A stretch of 64,000 nucleotides of DNA from Candidatus Shapirobacteria bacterium (lineage in GTDB: Bacteria > Patescibacteriota > Microgenomatia > UBA12405), in assembly GCA_028704885.1 (NCBI GenBank), contig JAQWEN010000001.1, positions 587,107 through 651,106 of the forward strand, in the 5' to 3' direction. The position numbers and the translations under genes were made by a program. This document shows positions 1 to 6,355 of this stretch, in pieces. The number at the start of each line of letters is the position of its first letter. Position 1 is the first letter of the stretch. Under the pieces are notes generated by a model. It was not told the DNA's origin. It did no database searches and worked only from the letters and a program-made list of their open reading frames with translations.

Positions 1-1
1 A

Positions 2-148
2 AAAGAAAAAGGAGTTCATGGAGATGACGTGACTAGATTGTATAACGAAGGAGAATTTAATAAAATTGCTGATTATGTGGCTAGAGATGCAGTAGCTACA
101 ACCGAATTATATTTAATTTGGAAAAATTACATGAGCGGACAAATCTAG
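2..148 (+). CDS. 3' end (48 codons) of an ORF truncated by the window start. The C-terminus weakly resembles RNase H-like (YprB-type) exonucleases.
   Basis: Open frame from position 2 to TAG at 146-148; translation ...GVHGDDVTRLYNEGEFNKIADYVARDAVATTELYLIWKNYMSGQI*. Confidence 0.3.
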   Translation, partial: KEKGVHGDDVTRLYNEGEFNKIADYVARDAVATTELYLIWKNYMSGQI

Positions 149-351
149 ATTGTCAGTTATTCAGACTATCAGTTAATCAAATAAATAAGAATGGATATAG
201 AAAATAAATACGAACAAGAATTATTTTTCCAAATTGAGGTGGAAAATAAAAAAGAAAAGCAAAGTCATAAACAAAAAAAGGTGGTTAAATTGGCGTCGGA
301 AAACTTAAAAAAAATGGTAATGGACAGATTAGAAGGAAAAACTGGTGAATG

Positions 352-1080
352 TTAAAAAACAAAAAATAAGACTAAAGATAGGATAAAGGTGTAGATTCCA
401 AAAATCCAGAATTTTTTGCTGACTAAAACTTTTTTAAGAATCCCTAGAGTAAAAATCCCAACAATAAAAGTAAGTATAAAGGCTAATAAATATTGGGTGT
501 TAAAAAGACCGGCAGTTGATAAATCTTTGGCACTTAGAATAAGAGCTCCAAAAGAAGCGGGAATAAAAAGACAGAAGGAAAATTTGAAAGCTTGGGTAGT
601 GGAAAAACCTAATAAAAGGGCAGCAAAAATGGTAGCACCGGCTCGGGAGACCCCCGGTAAAATGGCGACGGCTTGAAAAATACCAATAATAAGGGCTTTT
701 TTATAATCTAATTTAGAATCTTTTGATTTAAAAAATTTGGTGGAAAAAACAAAAACAGAACTTAAAATAAAGAAAAATGGTAAAAGATTAATATTAGAAA
801 AAAGAGTGTCAATTTGATCTTTAAATAAAATTCCAACTAGAGCAGCCGGAATTGAGGCAACTATAATAAATTTTAGATTGGTGAAAAAATATTTGATTTG
901 ATTTCGAAAGAAAAAAAGAACTGATAAAAAAGTAGCAGTATTGAGAAAAATATCGAGAGTAAGAGATGGAGTTAGCCTTAAAAAATATTGAGCTAAATTA
1001 AGGTGACCAGAGGAAGAAATTGGTAAAAATTCAGCAACACCTTGGATGATGCTTAATATAATTGTTTGGATTAAAGACAT
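352..1080 (-). CDS. uppP: undecaprenyl-diphosphate phosphatase
   Basis: 242 aa polytopic membrane protein with UppP/BacA signature motifs (EFLPISSSGHL ... PGVSRAGATI). Confidence 0.85.
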   Translation of the reverse strand: MSLIQTIILSIIQGVAEFLPISSSGHLNLAQYFLRLTPSLTLDIFLNTATFLSVLFFFRNQIKYFFTNLKFIIVASIPAALVGILFKDQIDTLFSNINLLPFFFILSSVFVFSTKFFKSKDSKLDYKKALIIGIFQAVAILPGVSRAGATIFAALLLGFSTTQAFKFSFCLFIPASFGALILSAKDLSTAGLFNTQYLLAFILTFIVGIFTLGILKKVLVSKKFWIFGIYTFILSLVLFFVF

Positions 1081-1122
1081 AAAATATAATAACAGAAGAG
1101 TCGTTAAAATTAATAAATTTAA

Positions 1123-1151
1123 TTGACATTATAGGTTATTTTTGATAGAAT
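1123..1151 (+). promoter_or_regulatory. sigma70-like promoter (TTGACA-17 nt-TAGAAT)
   Basis: TTGACA at 1123-1128, 17 nt spacer, TAGAAT at 1146-1151; ~150 nt upstream of the 1300 ORF. Confidence 0.4.
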
Positions 1152-1299
1152 CTGCCTTGTTGATCGAATAAAATTGATCGAACATTAACATCGTAACTAA
1201 TCAATATTGCGTTGAAAAAGTTGCAAAGAAAAAAAATAAAGCAGCAAAGCTGTTTTTAGATATAGAGACAACAAAAAAACAATAAGGAGGATATTATTT

Positions 1300-1539
1300 G
1301 TGGAAATAATGACGATGGAAGAAAAAAGTGATGATAAAATCGAACCTAGTTTCCTTGAGGTTTATTGTCAGCTTGGATTTTTTATCAAGGAGTGTTCTGT
1401 TGCTCCTAGTAGTTTTATTGCTTCCATAAGAATAAAGATCGAACATACTCAAGATCCAACGGAAATGATGGAAGTGATTAAAAAATACAAAAGTGTATTG
1501 GAGGAAATCAAAAAAACTTATGTAAAGGAGAAAATATAA
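1300..1539 (+). CDS. hypothetical small protein (79 aa), first gene of a bicistron
   Basis: AAGGAGG at 1284-1290, 9 nt before GTG 1300; overlaps next ORF by TAATG. Confidence 0.45.
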   Translation: MEIMTMEEKSDDKIEPSFLEVYCQLGFFIKECSVAPSSFIASIRIKIEHTQDPTEMMEVIKKYKSVLEEIKKTYVKEKI

Positions 1540-1781
1540 TGTTGAACATGCTGAGAATTGCTAAATTAAAGAAAATGATTCTCAGGTTCGAAAAAATTGA
1601 CAAAATTGCTCCGCTAATCAGAAAATGTCACTTCTTACCGAAAGGATTGGGAAATAAATTTCTAGATCTTCAAAAGGAATACTCATTCTATTTGTTTGGG
1701 TACTCGGTTAACGACGGTTACGGATCGGAATATTCCCTTAGACAAAAAATTGGAAAAATACGACAGCTTCTTGCTGATTAA
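1539..1781 (+). CDS. hypothetical small protein (80 aa), translationally coupled to upstream ORF
   Basis: AAGGAG 8 nt upstream of ATG; TAATG stop/start overlap; followed by terminator hairpin. Confidence 0.45.
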   Translation: MLNMLRIAKLKKMILRFEKIDKIAPLIRKCHFLPKGLGNKFLDLQKEYSFYLFGYSVNDGYGSEYSLRQKIGKIRQLLAD

Positions 1782-1785
1782 AAAT

Positions 1786-1846
1786 GGCGGTCAGGATGAC
1801 GAATTTTACCCTCGGGTAATTTTCTTTTGTCTCTGACCGCTTTTTC
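1786..1846 (+). terminator. rho-independent terminator-like long hairpin (GCGGTCAG...CTGACCGC with internal TACCCTCGGGTA hairpin) followed by a T-run
   Basis: 8 bp outer stem 1787-1794/1833-1840, T-run 1841-1845. Confidence 0.5.
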
Positions 1847-1867
1847 TTGGAAAATTTAGATAAAACA

Positions 1868-1896
1868 TTGATAAATTAGGTTAATATTGATACTAT
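1868..1896 (+). promoter_or_regulatory. sigma70-like promoter (TTGATA-17 nt-TACTAT), paralogous to the 1123 promoter
   Basis: Spacer sequence similar to that of the promoter at 1123 (shared TAGGTTA..T.TTGA). Confidence 0.35.
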
Positions 1897-1989
1897 GGGG
1901 TATAAATAACAAAGTTTAGACGACTAGTGCCTTAATGGAGTTTTTATATAAATGTTCTTTGAAAGAGATGAGAAAGGAGGAGATGAAAA

Positions 1990-2079
1990 ATGCCAGATTG
2001 GTTTTATTATTTAACCATGTTTCTGAGTTTGTTTGTGGTTATCTATCGTTTCCATGATTGGCAGAGAAAAAATCAATAA
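1990..2079 (+). CDS. hypothetical 29 aa hydrophobic peptide
   Basis: AGGAGGAG 7 nt upstream of ATG 1990; MPDWFYYLTMFLSLFVVIYRFHDWQRKNQ*. Confidence 0.3.
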   Translation: MPDWFYYLTMFLSLFVVIYRFHDWQRKNQ

Positions 2080-2105
2080 ATGTCTTTGGTGATTGGAGGA
2101 GCGAA

Positions 2106-2255
2106 ATGGATGCTGTTTATGTTTCTATATTGGCAATATTGACTTGTGTCATTATCGAAATAATCAGATTGTTTATCGAAAAAGTAAAACAACACAAACA
2201 ACAAAAACATTTTTTATTATCCTTGGAAAAAAAGAGGAGAACAAGTGGAGTTTAA
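2106..2255 (+). CDS. hypothetical 49 aa single-TM protein
   Basis: GGAGGAG 5 nt upstream of ATG 2106; hydrophobic segment SILAILTCVIIEIIRLFI; terminator follows. Confidence 0.35.
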   Translation: MDAVYVSILAILTCVIIEIIRLFIEKVKQHKQQKHFLLSLEKKRRTSGV

Positions 2256-2268
2256 GGATCTTCGAGAA

Positions 2269-2322
2269 GCGGTCGAATGACCAAATTTACCTTCGGGTAC
2301 TTTTGACATTGACCGCTTTTTT
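2269..2322 (+). terminator. terminator-like hairpin, paralog of the 1786-1846 hairpin (GCGGTC...TACCTTCGGGTA...GACCGC + T-run)
   Basis: Same architecture and ~70% identity to the terminator at 1786. Confidence 0.45.
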
Positions 2323-2470
2323 CATGTAATTAGTGGTAAAATAGGCCTATATTAATAATATATTATTAATAAAATTATTTCGGCTAATTTGAACGAAGCG
2401 TTCAAAAGAGACGATTTATATAGAAAGTTCTTTTAAATTTGAAGAAAATTAAAAAGAAAGGACAATAATT

Positions 2471-2791
2471 ATGTGGATTTATTTGCCTTGGATTTTGGTA
2501 GCAGTTTTTTTTATTCTTATTGGTTGGTGGATGGTTATGTTTCACCTTAACAAAAAAAGAGTTAAAAAACTGGTGTGGATGATTCTAAGTTTTAATGGAA
2601 AAGATTCGGAAACACGAGAAATTCGCGAATTAATTAAAAAATGTTATCTTTATCCATATAAAAACGAAATTGTTATCTTCTTTTTAACTCTTAAAGAGAA
2701 AGCTTACGATTGTGAAGATATTTTTAGATCCAATATTTTTATGGCTCAATATTTATTAATGAAACCAGTAGATAACGAGGTAGTTATTTAA
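2471..2791 (+). CDS. hypothetical membrane protein (106 aa)
   Basis: AAAGGA RBS before ATG; N-terminal TM helix. Confidence 0.45.
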   Translation: MWIYLPWILVAVFFILIGWWMVMFHLNKKRVKKLVWMILSFNGKDSETREIRELIKKCYLYPYKNEIVIFFLTLKEKAYDCEDIFRSNIFMAQYLLMKPVDNEVVI

Positions 2792-2825
2792 AATTGGAGA
2801 AAATAATAAATAGGAGGATAAAAGA

Positions 2826-2960
2826 ATGGAAATGTGGTTGATTGTTTTTATTGCTATCGCTGTAATAATTTCTTTTATTTTTGTTTTTGTTTTGGCTTTA
2901 TGTAAGATATCTGGTGAGGCATCAAGGAAAGAAGAATCGATGGCAGAGAAGAAGAGGTAG
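2826..2960 (+). CDS. hypothetical 44 aa single-TM peptide
   Basis: AGGAGG 2813-2818, 7 nt before ATG 2826; MEMWLIVFIAIAVIISFIFVFVLALCK... Confidence 0.4.
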   Translation: MEMWLIVFIAIAVIISFIFVFVLALCKISGEASRKEESMAEKKR

Positions 2961-3000
2961 TAAAAATAGAAAATGGCTGAAAAAGAAGTAAAAAGAACAA

Positions 3001-3046
3001 AAACCGGCAGGAGTTTGCAAAAGCAAATTAGTGCCGGTTTTTTTTG
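3001..3046. terminator. bidirectional rho-independent terminator between the small-ORF cluster (+) and rpsI (-)
   Basis: AAACCGGC...GCCGGTTT stem with T-runs on both strands. Confidence 0.55.
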
Positions 3047-3053
3047 GAAAAAA

Positions 3054-3467
3054 TTAACGCTTTGGAGATTGCTTTTGGCGTCGGGATTTACCACCAGTAC
3101 CGACCATTCTTCTTTCTTTGACTCGAGAATCGACAGTTAATAAACCAGTTGGTTTAATAATTGCTTTGAAAGATTCATTGATTTTAACTAGAGCTCGGCA
3201 AAGGGCGAGACTAAGAGCCTCAACTTGACCGGCTTTACCACCGCCAGTGATTTTAGTTTCAAAATGATACTTAGCAACAGTGTCAGTGACTAAAAATGGT
3301 CTATCGTAGGCAATTTGAGCAGTTTTTCCAGGAAAATATTTATCAGCTGAAATTTTATTGACAGTTGAATCCCCTTTTCCGGAAAATAATTTAACTGTAG
3401 CAACAGCAGCTTTTCTTCTACCAATTGCGTAAGTATAAGTGTTTGAAGTTATTTTTTTTGTAGCCAT
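3054..3467 (-). CDS. rpsI: 30S ribosomal protein S9
   Basis: S9 family sequence (GGGKAGQVEALSLALCRAL ... RRQKQSPKR). Confidence 0.93.
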   Translation of the reverse strand: MATKKITSNTYTYAIGRRKAAVATVKLFSGKGDSTVNKISADKYFPGKTAQIAYDRPFLVTDTVAKYHFETKITGGGKAGQVEALSLALCRALVKINESFKAIIKPTGLLTVDSRVKERRMVGTGGKSRRQKQSPKR

Positions 3468-3472
3468 AATCT

Positions 3473-3889
3473 TTATTTAGTGAATTTTTCGGCGAATTTA
3501 TGATCAGCGCCAACAAAAACTTTTAATCTAGTCATTCTGACATCTCTTAATTTATTTTTTGGCAACATACCGTAGACACCATGAGTAATTACCTGACGAG
3601 CATCTTTTCTCATGAGTTCACCAAGAGTGAGTTCTTTCAAGTGACCAGACCAGGCAGTGTGATGATAATAAACTTTTTGCTTTAATTTACGACCAGTAGT
3701 GACAATATCAGCAGCATTAATGGCAACAACATAATCACCATCATCTCGATGGTAAGAAAAATCAATTTTACCTTTGCCCATTAGTAATTGAGCAATTTCA
3801 GTACAAATACGACCTAAGGTTTTACCCTTAAGATCGACTAAATGCCAACTTCTTTCGACTTGGCTACCTTTTACAACTGTAGTTTTCAT
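3473..3889 (-). CDS. rplM: 50S ribosomal protein L13
   Basis: L13 family sequence; conserved rplM-rpsI pair. Confidence 0.93.
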   Translation of the reverse strand: MKTTVVKGSQVERSWHLVDLKGKTLGRICTEIAQLLMGKGKIDFSYHRDDGDYVVAINAADIVTTGRKLKQKVYYHHTAWSGHLKELTLGELMRKDARQVITHGVYGMLPKNKLRDVRMTRLKVFVGADHKFAEKFTK

Positions 3890-4362
3890 TATTTGATCTC
3901 CTTTTTGGCTGCTTTAGTTTTTTTAGCAACAGTTTTTTTAACTTCTTTGTTTTCTTTCTTGACTTTGTTTTTAATATTTTCTTTTTTCTCAGGCAAAAAG
4001 TTGACAGTTTTGACGAAACTATATTTGACGATTAAAGCATCATCACCAAAACGTCGTTTGATTTTAGTAATGGTGGTAAAGTTTGATTTTTGATCACCAA
4101 AAACTGATTTGAAGTTAGAAACGACACGATTAACCCAAGTTTGATCTTGGAGAACTTTAAATAATTCTCTTTTGGCGGTTAATTCTTCTTTACTAATAAT
4201 AGTGTTAGCCAAAGCTTCTACCATAGGAATAATAGCTTTTACTTTTGCTTCAGTGGTTTCAATTGAACCATGAGTAAACATGGCTTTAGTTAAAGACTTT
4301 ATTAAAGCTTTTCTTTCATTAAAATTACGGCCTAATTTTTTTCCTGCCATTCGATGTCTCAT
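3889..4362 (-). CDS. rplQ: 50S ribosomal protein L17 with Lys-rich C-terminal extension
   Basis: MRHRMAGKKLGRN... L17 N-terminus; follows rpoA. Confidence 0.92.
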   Translation of the reverse strand: MRHRMAGKKLGRNFNERKALIKSLTKAMFTHGSIETTEAKVKAIIPMVEALANTIISKEELTAKRELFKVLQDQTWVNRVVSNFKSVFGDQKSNFTTITKIKRRFGDDALIVKYSFVKTVNFLPEKKENIKNKVKKENKEVKKTVAKKTKAAKKEIK

Positions 4363-4365
4363 AGT

Positions 4366-5283
4366 TTATTTCCAAGTGAAGCCTCTTTCTTTTAACCAGG
4401 CATCGATAACTTTTAATGATTTTTCACCAACATTTTTAGCTTTGCTGACATCTAAACGACCGGCTTTGATTAAAGCATCGATAGTTGGATAACCAGCTTT
4501 CTTAAGAGCATTGGTAACTCTTAAAGGAAGTTCAATTTCTTCAACAGAAATATCACTACCGTGTGGATTTGGAGAAGCTAAAAGAGTAATAACTTCTTCT
4601 TCAAATTCTTTTGGATCGACAATTTGAGAAAAAGAACTAATTAAATCTTTAGCAGCCATTTTTAGTGCATGGAGAGGATCAACAGAACCGTCGGTCCAAA
4701 TTTCCATGGTTAATTTGTCGTAATTTGATTTTTTACCTAAACGAGTTGGCTCAACGGTATAATTAGTCTTAATAACTGGAGTAAATGAAGCATCGAGAAT
4801 TATTTCACCAACAATATCAGTTTTTTGTTCTTTAGCTAGAGTATAACCAACTCCTCTTTCAACAGTCAAAGACATTTTAATAGATGACTTATTGTCGGCA
4901 AGAGTAGCAATAACTTGATCTGGATTGGAAACTTTACATAAATCAGTATCAGTAATATCAGCAGCGGTAACGATTCCTGGACCTTTCTTTTCGAGAGTTA
5001 ATTCAATAGGTTCGTTTTGATTATATTCAAATTTAATTTTTTTAAGGTTTAAAGATACTTCAACTAAATCTTCTTTAACTCCAGGAAGAGTGGTAAAAAG
5101 GTGATTAGCACCATCAACTCTGATTTTGGTAATAGCAGCACCAGGAATGGTAATTAATAAAACGCGTCGCAAACTGTTTCCAAGAGTGTGACCGAAGCCA
5201 CCAACTAATGGACTAAGCTCGAACTTACCGTATTTTTCTTCTGTCTTTACGGTTTTGACATTAAACTTGTTTGTTTCGATCAT
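4366..5283 (-). CDS. rpoA: DNA-directed RNA polymerase subunit alpha
   Basis: RpoA N-terminal domain motifs (ELSPLVGGFGHTLGNSLRRVLL), 305 aa. Confidence 0.93.
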   Translation of the reverse strand: MIETNKFNVKTVKTEEKYGKFELSPLVGGFGHTLGNSLRRVLLITIPGAAITKIRVDGANHLFTTLPGVKEDLVEVSLNLKKIKFEYNQNEPIELTLEKKGPGIVTAADITDTDLCKVSNPDQVIATLADNKSSIKMSLTVERGVGYTLAKEQKTDIVGEIILDASFTPVIKTNYTVEPTRLGKKSNYDKLTMEIWTDGSVDPLHALKMAAKDLISSFSQIVDPKEFEEEVITLLASPNPHGSDISVEEIELPLRVTNALKKAGYPTIDALIKAGRLDVSKAKNVGEKSLKVIDAWLKERGFTWK

Positions 5284-5301
5284 TGTAGCTCCTTTTTTTT
5301 A

Positions 5302-5934
5302 TTATCTTGAATAATATTCAATTATTAAATTGACATCAATATCTTGGCCAATTTCTTCTCTAACTGGAGTAGAAATGACTTTGACAGTAAGGTTTTTTTT
5401 GTTTAAATCAAGCCACTGAGGGGCTTTAAAATCACTTTCCATGGCAGGAAGGACATCTTTATAGTTATTAATAGTTTTAGCGTCAAAACTGACTAAATCA
5501 CCAATTTTGGTTTCATAAGAGGAAATGTTGAGTTTTTTGCCATTAATTAGGACATGTTTATGACTGGTTAATTGTTTAGCTAAAGATCTGGACAAAACCA
5601 AACCTGATTTATAAAGAACATTATCCAAACGTTTTTCGAGAAGAATCATTAAATTGTCACCGACTAAGCCTTTGAGTTTTTTGGCTTTGAGATAATAGTT
5701 TTTAAATTGGGTTTCTTGGACACCGTAAATTCTTTTAGCTTTTTGTTTAGCACGAAGCTGAATACCGTAGTCAGTAGGCTTGCTGCCACCTTTGGCACCA
5801 TGCATACCTGGTTTAACAGCACCTTTCTTTTCGATTGGACACTTAGAAGAGTTGCAACGAACACCTTTCAAATAAAGTTTAGAACCAGCAGTTCGACAGA
5901 GTCGACATTTTGTATTTAAAGTAATTCTTGACAT
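5302..5934 (-). CDS. rpsD: 30S ribosomal protein S4 (zinc-finger form); longest ORF extends to 5979 but likely start is MSRITL at 5934
   Basis: CRLCR...C..SKC zinc-binding N-terminus; internal Met avoids overlap with rpsK. Confidence 0.88.
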   Translation of the reverse strand: MSRITLNTKCRLCRTAGSKLYLKGVRCNSSKCPIEKKGAVKPGMHGAKGGSKPTDYGIQLRAKQKAKRIYGVQETQFKNYYLKAKKLKGLVGDNLMILLEKRLDNVLYKSGLVLSRSLAKQLTSHKHVLINGKKLNISSYETKIGDLVSFDAKTINNYKDVLPAMESDFKAPQWLDLNKKNLTVKVISTPVREEIGQDIDVNLIIEYYSR

Positions 5935-5944
5935 ATTTTTTTGT

Positions 5945-6355
5945 TTAAACTCTTCTTTGTTTTGGAGGTCTTGGACCATTGTGAGGAATTGGAGTGATAT
6001 CAGAGATCATATCGACATCAAAATCTCTTTTGGTGCGAAGATATCTAAGAGCAGCATCCCGACCTGAACCTGGACCTTTCAAATAAACAGCTAATTTTTT
6101 AACACCATGTTTTTTGGCTTCTTCTAGGGTTTTTTCAATGGCAGTAGTAGCGGCATAAGGAGTAGATTTTCTGGCTCCTTTAAAACCACAGTTACCTGAA
6201 CTTGACCAGGCAACAGTTTTACCCTTGGAATCAGTAATAGTAACAATAGTATTATTAAAAGTTGATTGAATATAAAGTCGACCTTCAGCAATATTTTTAA
6301 ATGTTTTCTTTTTGACGACTGTATTAGTAGTTGTTTTAGTTTTTTGTTCTGCCAT
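5945..6355 (-). CDS. rpsK: 30S ribosomal protein S11
   Basis: S11 family sequence. Confidence 0.93.
   Translation of the reverse strand: MAEQKTKTTTNTVVKKKTFKNIAEGRLYIQSTFNNTIVTITDSKGKTVAWSSSGNCGFKGARKSTPYAATTAIEKTLEEAKKHGVKKLAVYLKGPGSGRDAALRYLRTKRDFDVDMISDITPIPHNGPRPPKQRRV

Follow-up and report, generated by a model that had tools for sequence, protein, structure and literature searches.

Three tandem small-gene modules in the uppP–rpsI gap of a Candidatus Shapirobacteria bacterium: a probable lineage-specific island

Genomes of the Candidate Phyla Radiation (CPR) are tiny and encode many unannotated small proteins, and to our knowledge very little is known of gene regulation in these organisms. 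In a Candidatus Shapirobacteria MAG, the gap between the minus-strand genes uppP and rpsI, which takes up the entire interval 1081–3053 of the window (the whole stretch of DNA that was analysed, 64,000 nucleotides long), contains a series of small ORFs on the plus strand. An earlier note on this DNA had seen in them a duplicated family of toxin–antitoxin (TA) or bacteriocin/immunity-like cassettes, and the question raised by the locus is whether this is what they are. The present study points to another answer, namely that the gap probably holds three small-gene modules, each a transcription unit of its own, that form an island specific to one clade of Candidatus Shapirobacteria. This explanation covers the architecture and evolution of the locus, not its physiology. 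A search of the literature found nothing relevant on such a locus.

Location and Organization of the Modules

The genes for ribosomal protein S9 (rpsI) and uppP are neighbours in 31/31 relatives. The distance between them is 30–70 nt in distant relatives and 0.5–2.7 kb, with small plus-strand ORFs, in the near clade, where about 20 related genomes or metagenome contigs (referred to below by L numbers) carry a similar array at the equivalent site. At least four modules are present in L100, and two to three in L041, L043, L071, L076 and L103. The window has three, all on the plus strand and so antisense to both rpsI and uppP, and each runs from a sigma-70-like promoter, whose spacer carries a shared ATAGG box, through a conserved 5' leader and one or two small ORFs to a long, putative terminator hairpin (Table 1). 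The earlier note had described two paralogous modules, all features of which were found in place; it is their number that changes, since promoter P3 and a conserved leader before p106 make up a third. The island of the window contains no tRNA, and no integrase was found in it or in its 20-kb neighbourhood. The gap of L102 includes an rve-family transposase.

Table 1. Features of the uppP–rpsI region (positions in the window)
Feature	Position	Strand	Description
uppP/BacA	352..1080	-	Left boundary gene; Pfam BacA, E 3e-57; next to S9 in 31/31 relatives
Promoter P1	1123..1151	+	TTGACA, 17 nt (ATAGG box, TGn extended -10), TAGAAT; 11/12 match
Leader 1	1152..1230	+	Structured 5' leader with RNA helices P1 (a hairpin extended by UGUU/GAAC), P2 and, within P2, P3
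Small hairpin GCAGC/GCUGU + U5	1237..1258	+	Candidate attenuator or pause site closing leader 1
p79	1300..1539	+	Small, acidic, soluble protein; starts with GTG, 9 nt downstream of AAGGAGG; NCBI start is ATG 1315
p80	1539..1781	+	Basic four-helix protein, family B without TM helix; pI 9.9
T1	1787..1846	+	Long hairpin (GCGGTC...GACCGC, 1787-1840) + U-run; putative intrinsic terminator
Promoter P2	1868..1896	+	TTGATA, 17 nt (TTAGG box, TGn), TACTAT
Leader 2, copy 1	1897..1989	+	Conserved box GGAGUUUUUAUAUA..GUUCUUU, predicted SD pairing; nhmmer match 1913-1985, E 1e-10
p29	1990..2079	+	Hydrophobic peptide, candidate gene; GGAGG as RBS at a distance of 8 nt; a single TM-like stretch
p49	2106..2255	+	Single-TM peptide, basic tail, candidate gene; RBS TGGAGGAG; TM score 2.7
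T2	2269..2322	+	Long hairpin (GCGGTC...GACCGC, 2269-2316) + U-run; putative intrinsic terminator
Promoter P3	2333..2361	+	Degenerate -35 GTGGTA, AAATAGG box, -10 TAATAT
Leader 2, copy 2	2362..2470	+	5' hairpin UUUGAACGAAGCGUUCAAA; conserved box; downstream of it GUUCUUUU, predicted to pair with AAAGGAC (SD); nhmmer 2386-2453, E 1e-8
p106	2471..2791	+	Family B with N-terminal TM helix; orthologs P0010, P0011
p44	2826..2960	+	Family C, single-TM peptide, charged tail; perfect AGGAGG
Hairpin	2996..3045	.	A-run/T-run flanks; -24.2 kcal/mol, z -6.0; also present in L103
rpsI (S9)	3054..3467	-	Right boundary gene; final gene of ribosomal-protein operon

Promoters and Terminator Hairpins

The two promoters reported previously, with -35 and -10 elements 17 nt apart and related spacers, were recovered as P1 and P2, and the spacer length is constant. 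A promoter nearly identical to P1 lies at the equivalent position in L003, L011, L017, L037, L049, L071, L076 and L103, the T1+P2 junction is near-identical in L071, P2-type promoters occur in L004 and L100, and the region around P3 (2309–2440) shares 92% identity with L103. The spacer pattern AGGTTA..TTGATA common to P1 and P2 is unique in the window, but was itself built from those two sites. When metagenomes were scanned with the promoter pattern, 38/49 matches were unrelated consensus promoters of other organisms, and in IMG/VR viral contigs there were no matches.

The long hairpins of common sequence, each directly followed by a T-run, were likewise found at both of the sites where they had been noticed. 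Two hairpins of the form GCGGTC...GACCGC occur in the 64 kb against none expected; they fold with -29.6 (T1) and -25.6 kcal/mol (T2), with z about -6.5, and share a 28-nt core of 86% identity. Fifteen copies from 11 loci, 45–70 nt long, could be aligned to a consensus RCGGUY...UUGACCGY + Us in which CGGU...ACCG is invariant, and in all of them the hairpin and U-run stand at the 3' end of the unit, as predicted of an intrinsic terminator. The alignment contains covariation, its 15 copies being related to each other. In about 0.5 Mb of related Shapirobacteria DNA the hairpin, like both leaders described below, is confined to the rpsI–uppP gap. Since the hairpin is specific to this locus and four of the six ORFs are conserved as proteins (p79, p80, p106 and p44 have homologs), the view of a common genome-wide terminator beside unconserved ORFs fails. 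The hairpin at 2996–3045 is a predicted bidirectional terminator that would serve both module 3 and the convergent rpsI operon. A viral origin was considered and rejected, the 16 matches of the hairpin pattern in IMG/VR all being unrelated by fold and composition.

Counterparts of T1 are present in L017, L049, L037, L004 and L100, and the nearest counterparts of T2 in L007, L041, L043 and L103. Each subtype is thus represented in other genomes, and T1 and T2 did not arise by a recent duplication confined to this one. The idea of a duplicated cassette family holds in a wider sense, in that promoters, leaders and hairpins each form a family with several members in the window and others across about 20 related loci, and p80 and p106 are paralogs.

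Leader RNAs

The covariance model of leader 1 (R1) scores 98 bits at the window and found nine loci, two of them outside its training set. In the alignment 91.7% of cells are paired, against at most 41% in slid controls, with six pairs changed on both sides, figures that come from nine sequences related to each other (and related sequences can beat shuffles without any structure) and from a CM-derived alignment biased towards the modelled structure. The G-U pairs agree with the plus strand. Rfam 15, searched with positions 1–6000, gave two chance-level matches (E 0.34 and 0.58), both far below gathering. Leader 1 precedes soluble proteins. The position of the small hairpin that follows it is kept in L049, L103, L102 and L017, with two compensatory stem types, CAGC/GCUG and ACGG/CCGU.

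In the MFE structure of the first copy of leader 2, UUCUUU is paired with AAAGGA. The second copy folds with z -3.0, and its SD is paired at a probability of 0.91 versus 0.39 in shuffles; among the ten cases analysed, masking of the SD is clearly above the shuffled control in three only. RNAalifold supports the 5' hairpin alone, and this hairpin covaries. Leader 2 is mostly found upstream of single-pass membrane proteins.

Encoded Proteins

The first module carries, as had been described, a bicistron of 79 and 80 aa overlapping at TAATG, with a GGAG-type RBS for each ORF. The sole homolog of p79 (pI 5.2) is an 84-aa ORF in L071 with 34% identity. Its assignment as a diverged member of family A was tried and dropped (HMM E 0.44; hhalign probability 0.2–1.2%), and homology between families A and B was also tested and rejected. 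Homologs of p80 are present in L004, L017, L076, L099, L102, L103 and L105. It is a paralog of p106 (BLASTP E 7e-5), and both match a 132-aa protein of L004. Family B numbers about 10 clusters, every one of them adjoining S9. An AF2 model of p80 from a 13-sequence alignment has a pLDDT of 90.5 and supersedes an earlier five-sequence run (pLDDT 67) whose Foldseek matches were meaningless. With the newer model Foldseek found no neighbour, the best E being 3.9 in the PDB and 2.3 in BFVD, and sequence-profile searches of the PDB returned designed coiled coils only. Family B thus appears to be a new basic four-helix domain, found only at the rpsI–uppP locus, free in p80 and tethered by a TM helix in p106.

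The two hydrophobic peptides of the second module, and beyond them the TM protein p106 and the TM peptide p44 with its perfect AGGAGG, were all confirmed as ORFs. For p29 and p49 no homolog was detectable anywhere, and these two are treated as candidate genes from their RBS, hydrophobicity and position. The peptide p44 has 49% identity to a 50-aa peptide of L103 and also matches in L076 and L004, with pN/pS 0.58. Searches of all six ORFs and their relatives in Pfam, NCBIfam, PADLOC and PHROG gave nothing above noise, and a word-indexed homology search matched p79 and p80 to themselves only.

Conservation of Control Elements and Turnover of ORFs

Nucleotide similarity between genomes is limited to P1+leader 1, T1, P2, T2 and P3+leader 2. 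The promoters, leaders and hairpins are 80–92% identical, comparable to ribosomal-protein genes, whereas the intervening ORFs have either been replaced or are diverging 7–10 times faster than S9. Between the window and L103, identity is 91.9% for P3+leader 2, 87.5% for S9 and 71.8% for uppP. Values of dS are 0.56 for S9 and 1.0 for uppP, and those of dN are 0.36 for p44 and 0.55 for p80 versus 0.05 for S9; pN/pS of the downstream ORFs is 0.5–0.6. In L049, leader 1 and T1 are kept at 89% and 84% identity and a family A protein replaces p79 and p80 between them, and L103 has a 63-aa two-TM protein at the position of p106. Strong purifying selection acts on the control elements.

Proposed Explanation and Alternatives

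On this evidence, each module would be transcribed from a sigma-70 promoter that is close to the consensus, has an extended -10 and carries the conserved ATAGG box in its spacer (P3 having a poor -35). The RNA would begin with one of two leaders, the first multi-helical and closed by a weak hairpin and U-run, the second with a 5' hairpin and a U-rich box, and these may set the level of expression, leader 1 by attenuation and leader 2 by masking of the SD. The long hairpin would end the module as an intrinsic terminator and insulate it from the other modules and from the convergent ribosomal operon. The products would be abundant small proteins, cytoplasmic or anchored in the membrane, and the array probably evolves by duplication and by recombination at its conserved punctuation. 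That the promoters, leaders and terminators are functional is suggested by their sequence and conservation.

A more ambitious version, which is speculative and rather doubtful, sees in the locus a dedicated array for the diversification of small proteins, whose ORFs are exchanged, duplicated or replaced at the leader and hairpin punctuation, with leader 1 as a sensing attenuator, and which might be of use to an episymbiotic CPR bacterium in its dealings with hosts or phages. The repertoire that such an array would hold consists of the basic four-helix domain, TM peptides and Cys-rich basic peptides, with two new classes of leader RNA and one hairpin family.

It is unlikely that the modules with TM peptides (p29/p49, p44 and perhaps p106) are type I TA-like, with the toxin silenced by leader 2 through SD masking and by an unseen RNA antitoxin. 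In size and TM content p29, p49 and p44 do resemble type I toxins, each having one hydrophobic stretch and a charged tail in fewer than 60 aa (peptides of this kind at the locus have 29–55 aa and one TM helix). Leader 2 is far better conserved than the peptides and is able to pair with the SD, and tandem modules with conserved non-coding parts recall the Ldr/Rdl and Ibs/Sib repeats. A faint match of p49 to CD_typeI_toxin (NCBIfam, C. difficile; E 0.09) reaches 13 bits against a cut-off of 60, however, and is explained by hydrophobic composition; otherwise none of the type I toxin families searched for (Hok, Ldr, Ibs, TisB, Fst, TxpA and others) was matched in Pfam or NCBIfam. Sigma-70-like promoters on the opposite strand were absent from 9/9 leader 2 regions scanned, and across the island promoter-like sites of the minus strand are at chance level; an RNA acting in trans, or one with an atypical promoter, could still play the part of antitoxin. 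The same leader 2 also stands upstream of proteins of 105–190 aa and of a soluble protein of 133 aa, and high expression is suggested by RBSs that are both strong and accessible, together with promoters close to the consensus.

A further reading takes RNAs as the main products, with leader 1, the small hairpin and its U-run forming an sRNA of about 105 nt or an attenuator sensing a ligand or protein, and the ORFs being secondary or partly spurious. Leader 1 is conserved like ribosomal-protein genes while the ORFs downstream are swapped, contains no ORF (from the ORF list) and has a covarying structure, and the hairpin and U-run keep their position through two compensatory stem types. This hairpin is weak (-3 to -7 kcal/mol), though, is absent in L076 and in L071 has a stem without a U-run, and the lack of an Rfam family match means that no ligand can be proposed. 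The ORFs have strong RBSs and are conserved as proteins (the pN/pS values and the clusters of family B given above), and the reading seems distinctly improbable.

Very little speaks for p79 and p80 as a type II TA system, in which an acidic antitoxin upstream would be translationally coupled to a basic toxin downstream, beyond the TAATG overlap, the sizes of 79 and 80 aa, the pI values of 5.2 and 9.9, and the arrangement in five loci (the window, L004, L017, L102 and L103) where a family A or p79-type ORF directly precedes family B, L099 having a 69-aa ORF between the two. Profile searches of both proteins matched no TA or defence family (RelE/ParE, MazF, PIN, HicA, Doc, HEPN and others), the confident model of p80 is without a neighbour among solved structures, and p79 has no match to a DNA-binding domain (RHH, HTH, AbrB or Phd/YefM) in Pfam, NCBIfam, PADLOC or PHROG. 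The pairing is not kept across genomes. Partners are separate or differently combined in L003, L007, L009, L011, L037, L049, L071 and L076: family A is alone in L003, L009, L037, L049 and L011, family B is alone after leader 1 in L076 and both alone and fused to a TM helix in L007, and the ORF behind the sole p79 homolog (L071) encodes an unrelated basic Cys peptide. Family A spans a pI range of 4.8–9.9, and the locus is fixed, single and without mobility. A profile search with family A, linker and family B fused had nothing but Shapirobacteria proteins, six in number, among the matches listed, a figure from which the W-rich linker may have cost candidates.

A bacteriocin/immunity cassette or a mobile-element or prophage remnant, suggested by the small hydrophobic peptides, the content that varies among close relatives and the transposase of L102, is most improbable, as the peptides begin directly with the TM segment and have no double-glycine or Sec leader, no C39/ABC transporter or modification gene occurs within 10 kb and no bacteriocin family matched, the island of the window is without tRNA or integrase, the viral contig scans gave nothing for the promoter and unrelated chance matches for the hairpin, and all homologs occupy the same chromosomal site, neither scattered nor mobile. 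With no family match, no kept pairing and a single chromosomal locus, the proposal that these are TA or bacteriocin cassettes is unsupported.

Significance and Relationship to Known Systems

The island of autonomous modules preferred here is a clear comparative case in which non-coding control elements vary no more than ribosomal-protein genes but the proteins under their control turn over. It adds two leader RNAs without an Rfam entry, a promoter whose spacer holds a conserved box and a locus-specific terminator family, and supplies candidate regulatory RNAs, a confidently modelled domain without structural relatives and a hot spot of gene gain beside a ribosomal operon. Should the modules turn out to carry genes of conflict or of host interaction, they would suggest that small proteins are diversified in a manner specific to CPR bacteria; otherwise the locus keeps its use as an example of how promoters, leaders and terminators are put together in an uncultured phylum.

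Among known systems, phage morons are autonomous promoter–ORF–terminator units inserted between two genes (the concept of Hendrix and Juhala). The modules resemble them in carrying what appear to be their own sigma-70-type promoter and factor-independent terminator around one or two small ORFs, and in lying between two genes that are 30–70 nt apart in relatives. Unlike morons, they are chromosomal, at one fixed site of a CPR bacterium with no prophage context, and are tandem, with common leaders and one terminator family. Tandem type I TA repeats are known from E. coli (LDR ldr/rdl, SIB ibs/sib) and H. pylori (aapA/IsoA), and share with the island the tandem modules, TM peptides of up to 60 aa and conserved, structured leaders that would mask the SD; here, in contrast, the scans showed no promoter for an antisense or antitoxin RNA, soluble proteins or ones of 80–190 aa make up half of the ORFs, and no toxin family is represented. 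In the variable surface protein loci vlp/vsp of Mycoplasma, highly conserved 5' regions precede divergent coding regions, and the likeness extends to clustered genes, near-identical promoters and leaders, and a host-associated bacterium with a reduced genome. The modules differ in having no lipoprotein signal peptides, protein repeats, or homopolymer tract or invertible element that would allow phase variation, and in the constancy of their 17-nt promoter spacers.

With integron cassettes the locus shares variable ORFs between conserved imperfect hairpins and an array at a fixed site, and the diversification array considered above would in effect be the chromosomal counterpart of a cassette array, with the means of its own expression. 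Unlike such cassettes, however, the modules have their own promoter and leader and no integrase in the 20-kb neighbourhood, and the aligned hairpins show by eye no attC core (GTTRRRY), their stem base being RCGGUY/UUGACCGY. T1 and T2 are like intrinsic terminators in being GC-based hairpins followed by U-runs, and the A-run and T-run flanks of the hairpin at 2996–3045 are as in the bidirectional type; the T1/T2 family stands apart from ordinary terminators in its unusual length (45–70 nt), its sequence-conserved stem base and its restriction to one locus.

The uppP–rpsI locus and its relatives

The gap between uppP and rpsI (1081–3053, 1973 nt in the window) is bounded on both sides by minus-strand genes, and beyond it on the rpsI side the ribosomal-protein operon occupies the next 15 kb. 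Every candidate gene of the gap lies on the plus strand, convergent with rpsI and divergent from uppP. Judged from sequence, the best-supported reading of this island is an array of autonomous promoter–leader–ORF–terminator modules kept at one chromosomal site, in which the punctuation is strongly constrained and the coding content turns over.

Related loci were collected by a scan with S9, which gave 31, and metagenome and Logan contigs were added. S9 and uppP are adjacent and on the same strand in 31/31. More distant relatives, together with L006 from among the near ones, have a gap of only 30–70 nt; it measures 0.5–1.4 kb in most near relatives, and up to 2.7 kb in the metagenome and Logan examples, among which L100 holds at least four modules. 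Given the short gap of distant relatives against 0.5–2.7 kb elsewhere, the island is an insertion hot spot confined to one clade and sited between the terminator of S9 and the start of uppP, not a universal feature.

At the uppP end, a minus-strand −10-like hexamer (1081–1095; TATTAT in the window, TATAAT in relatives) stops some 5 nt short of the ATG whether the island is present or absent (L003–L033 gaps), and no SD accompanies it; the uppP mRNA is probably leaderless in translation. This uppP promoter stands back-to-back with P1, the first predicted promoter of the island. At the other end of uppP, a plus-strand ORF of 54 aa (191–355) is convergent with the gene, the two sharing 4 nt at the 3' end of uppP. 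Identity is 40–94% across nearly all relatives, and the ORF is annotated as hypothetical with no Pfam hit on record.

Modules, predicted promoters and terminator hairpins

The six small ORFs (p79, p80, p29, p49, p106 and p44, named by length in amino acids), their RBSs and a TAATG overlap match the description in the earlier note, and its two promoter-like sites with related spacers, P1 and P2, are likewise present. A third module was also found, in which promoter P3 is followed by a conserved leader and then by p106. Neither the ATAGG-box promoter nor the hairpin, whether taken whole or by its apex, recurs in the 64-kb window outside the island.

Features of the uppP–rpsI gap and its boundaries
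Feature	Position	Strand	Observation
uppP/BacA	352–1080	−	Left boundary of gap
P1 + leader 1	1104–1264		BLASTN, 75–89% identity to eight loci
P1 promoter-like site	1123–1151	+	Shared spacer AGGTTA..TTGATA
Leader 1	1152–1230		5' leader RNA
T1	1778–1855		BLASTN-similar segment
T1 hairpin	1787–1840		GCGGTC...GACCGC, T-run
T1–P2 junction	1802–1896		BLASTN-similar segment
P2 promoter-like site	1868–1896	+	Shared spacer AGGTTA..TTGATA
P2	1868–1950		BLASTN-similar segment
Leader 2	1897–1989 and 2362–2470	+	Core common to at least 10 other modules
T2	2267–2322		BLASTN-similar segment
T2 hairpin	2269–2316		GCGGTC...GACCGC, T-run
P3 + leader 2	2309–2440		BLASTN, 92% to L103
P3 promoter, third module	2333–2361	+	AAATAGG spacer box as in other modules; poor −35
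p44-plus-terminator segment			BLASTN, 73% to L103
rpsI	3054–3467	−	Right boundary; last gene of ribosomal-protein operon

Directly after the −35, an (A/T)(A/T)ATAGG box is conserved in the spacers of P1, P2, P3 and all related modules. Since promoter spacers are not normally conserved, this box may be a regulator binding site or a lineage-specific sigma contact.

The long terminator hairpins of shared sequence reported earlier are both there, as two matches where none was expected, with folding energies of −29.6 (T1) and −25.6 kcal/mol (T2), z-scores of about −6.5 and a 28-nt core in common (86% identity). Fifteen aligned copies from the island and its relatives, a small and phylogenetically related sample, form a single family: CGGU...ACCG never varies, pairing holds in 96% of cells, covariation is seen at the closing pair (G-C in 10, A-U in 5) and a U-run follows every copy. 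The search for further copies that had been proposed was run with a regex and nhmmer on 0.47–0.53 Mb of Shapirobacteria DNA (64 kb of this genome and 1.5–20 kb fragments of relatives). Matches were confined to the rpsI–uppP gap, the sole exception being one chance regex match within an S9 gene; in the DNA searched, the motif is not a common terminator. T1 resembles the copies of L017, L049 and L100, and T2 those of L007, L041, L043 and L103; because each resembles copies from different loci, the two are old paralogs and no private duplication. The predicted terminators could plausibly insulate strongly promoted modules from one another and from the convergent ribosomal operon.

Leader RNAs

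For leader 1, the same structure comes from single-sequence folding, from RNAalifold and from hand drawing: a first hairpin extended by UGUU/GAAC, and then an outer helix around an inner hairpin. In seven MAFFT-aligned sequences 90.6% of cells pair, compared with 20–39% in slid controls, and six pairs change on both sides, compared with 0–1, in what are small samples of phylogenetically related sequences. The G-U pairs are consistent with plus-strand transcription. A covariance model found exactly one copy at each of nine loci, including two that had no part in building it (L103, 86 bits; L102, 59 bits), and no further match in the 513 kb searched; Rfam gave no match. About 10–16 nt 3' of leader 1 there is a weak hairpin with a U-run, its stem existing in two compensatory types across loci, which may be an attenuator. 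Between this hairpin with its U-run and the RBS region comes a short box that is conserved in several loci, (G)AUAUAGAG(A/G)C (1259–1270 in the window; also in L103, L003, L102 and L071).

Leader 2 has covariation support limited to its 5' hairpin. Most predicted structures pair its conserved GU(A/U)CUUU box with the SD, and the statistic for this pairing is clear in some modules only, with 0.91 against 0.39 in the third module of the window. Leader 1 is upstream of soluble proteins in every case, and leader 2 is almost always upstream of TM proteins.

Small proteins of the island

No island protein had a match in Pfam, PHROGs, PADLOC or NCBIfam. Protein p106 is a paralog of p80 (BLASTP E 7e-5), and each of them matches, within one frame, a 132-aa protein of L004. 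An exhaustive profile search extended this family (family B) to about 10 clusters; all that can be placed adjoin S9, with BacA flanking the other side wherever the contig extends that far. The domain is basic (pI 9.4–9.9) and occurs either free, as in p80, or after an N-terminal TM helix, as in p106. An AF2 model from 13 sequences has four helices (pLDDT 90.5, pTM 0.78), for which Foldseek found no neighbour in the PDB (best E 3.9) or BFVD (best E 2.3). A family of TM peptides includes p44 and members in L103, L076 and L004. One homolog of p79 was found, in L071 (34% identity); p79 is unrelated to family A, the commoner occupant of its position. Searches for homologs of p29 and p49 found none.

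The most serious rival to the modular array is that the TM peptides would have a type I toxin–antitoxin-like role, with which the arrangement of leader and SD is compatible and for which an antitoxin RNA may yet exist. The broader toxin–antitoxin and bacteriocin readings of the earlier note fail on membership: there are no family or fold matches, conserved pairing, export genes and mobility are absent as well, and no sigma-70-like antisense promoter was seen in nine leader 2 regions.

Constraint on punctuation and turnover of coding content

The modular array also accords with how similarity is distributed, as BLASTN similarity between the window gap and other gaps is restricted to control elements. 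Between the window and L103, identity is 87.5% for S9, 92.8% for L13 and 71.8% for uppP, with synonymous divergence of 0.56 (S9) and 1.0 (uppP); set against these values, the identity of the control regions indicates that they evolve more slowly than synonymous sites. The ORFs show the reverse pattern, with a dN of 0.36 for p44 and 0.55 for p80 against 0.05 for S9, though their pN/pS of 0.5–0.6 stays under 1. Replacement of whole ORFs is seen in L049, where leader 1 (89% identical) and T1 (84%) enclose one family A protein in place of p79 and p80, and in L103, where a 63-aa two-TM protein in the p106 position follows P3 and leader 2 and is itself followed by a clear p44 homolog and the window's rpsI-side terminator. 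Because conserved flanks surround non-homologous ORFs, we infer that recombination takes place in the control elements or close to them.

Other contents of related gaps

Several relatives encode a family of small, very basic peptides (..IYFxFDxKPPKKxKK.., often with a CxxC...C motif) whose ORFs overlap family B genes or come straight after them (L004 gap 917–1075; L071 501–680; L100 1914–2060 and ~3167–3256; L103 ~2297–2413). The window showed no copy of it. Two gaps carry other proteins and are devoid of promoter, leader or hairpin elements: in that of L008 (1416 nt) the S9 strand encodes a 409-aa Cys-rich repeat protein, and that of L019 (733 nt) has a 206-aa protein. In L102, an rve-family (IS-type) transposase gene (123–1208) is at the usual uppP position, adjoining a family A and B bicistron and S9, consistent with a gap that tolerates insertions. 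Some related islands, though not that of the window, have an extra GC-rich hairpin, CCCTCC-CTTGACAA-GGAGGG, with TTGACA within the loop; it lies 5' of some module promoters or past the last module (L071 ~40–75; L076 gap 45–80; L100 2765–2800 and 4003–4035).
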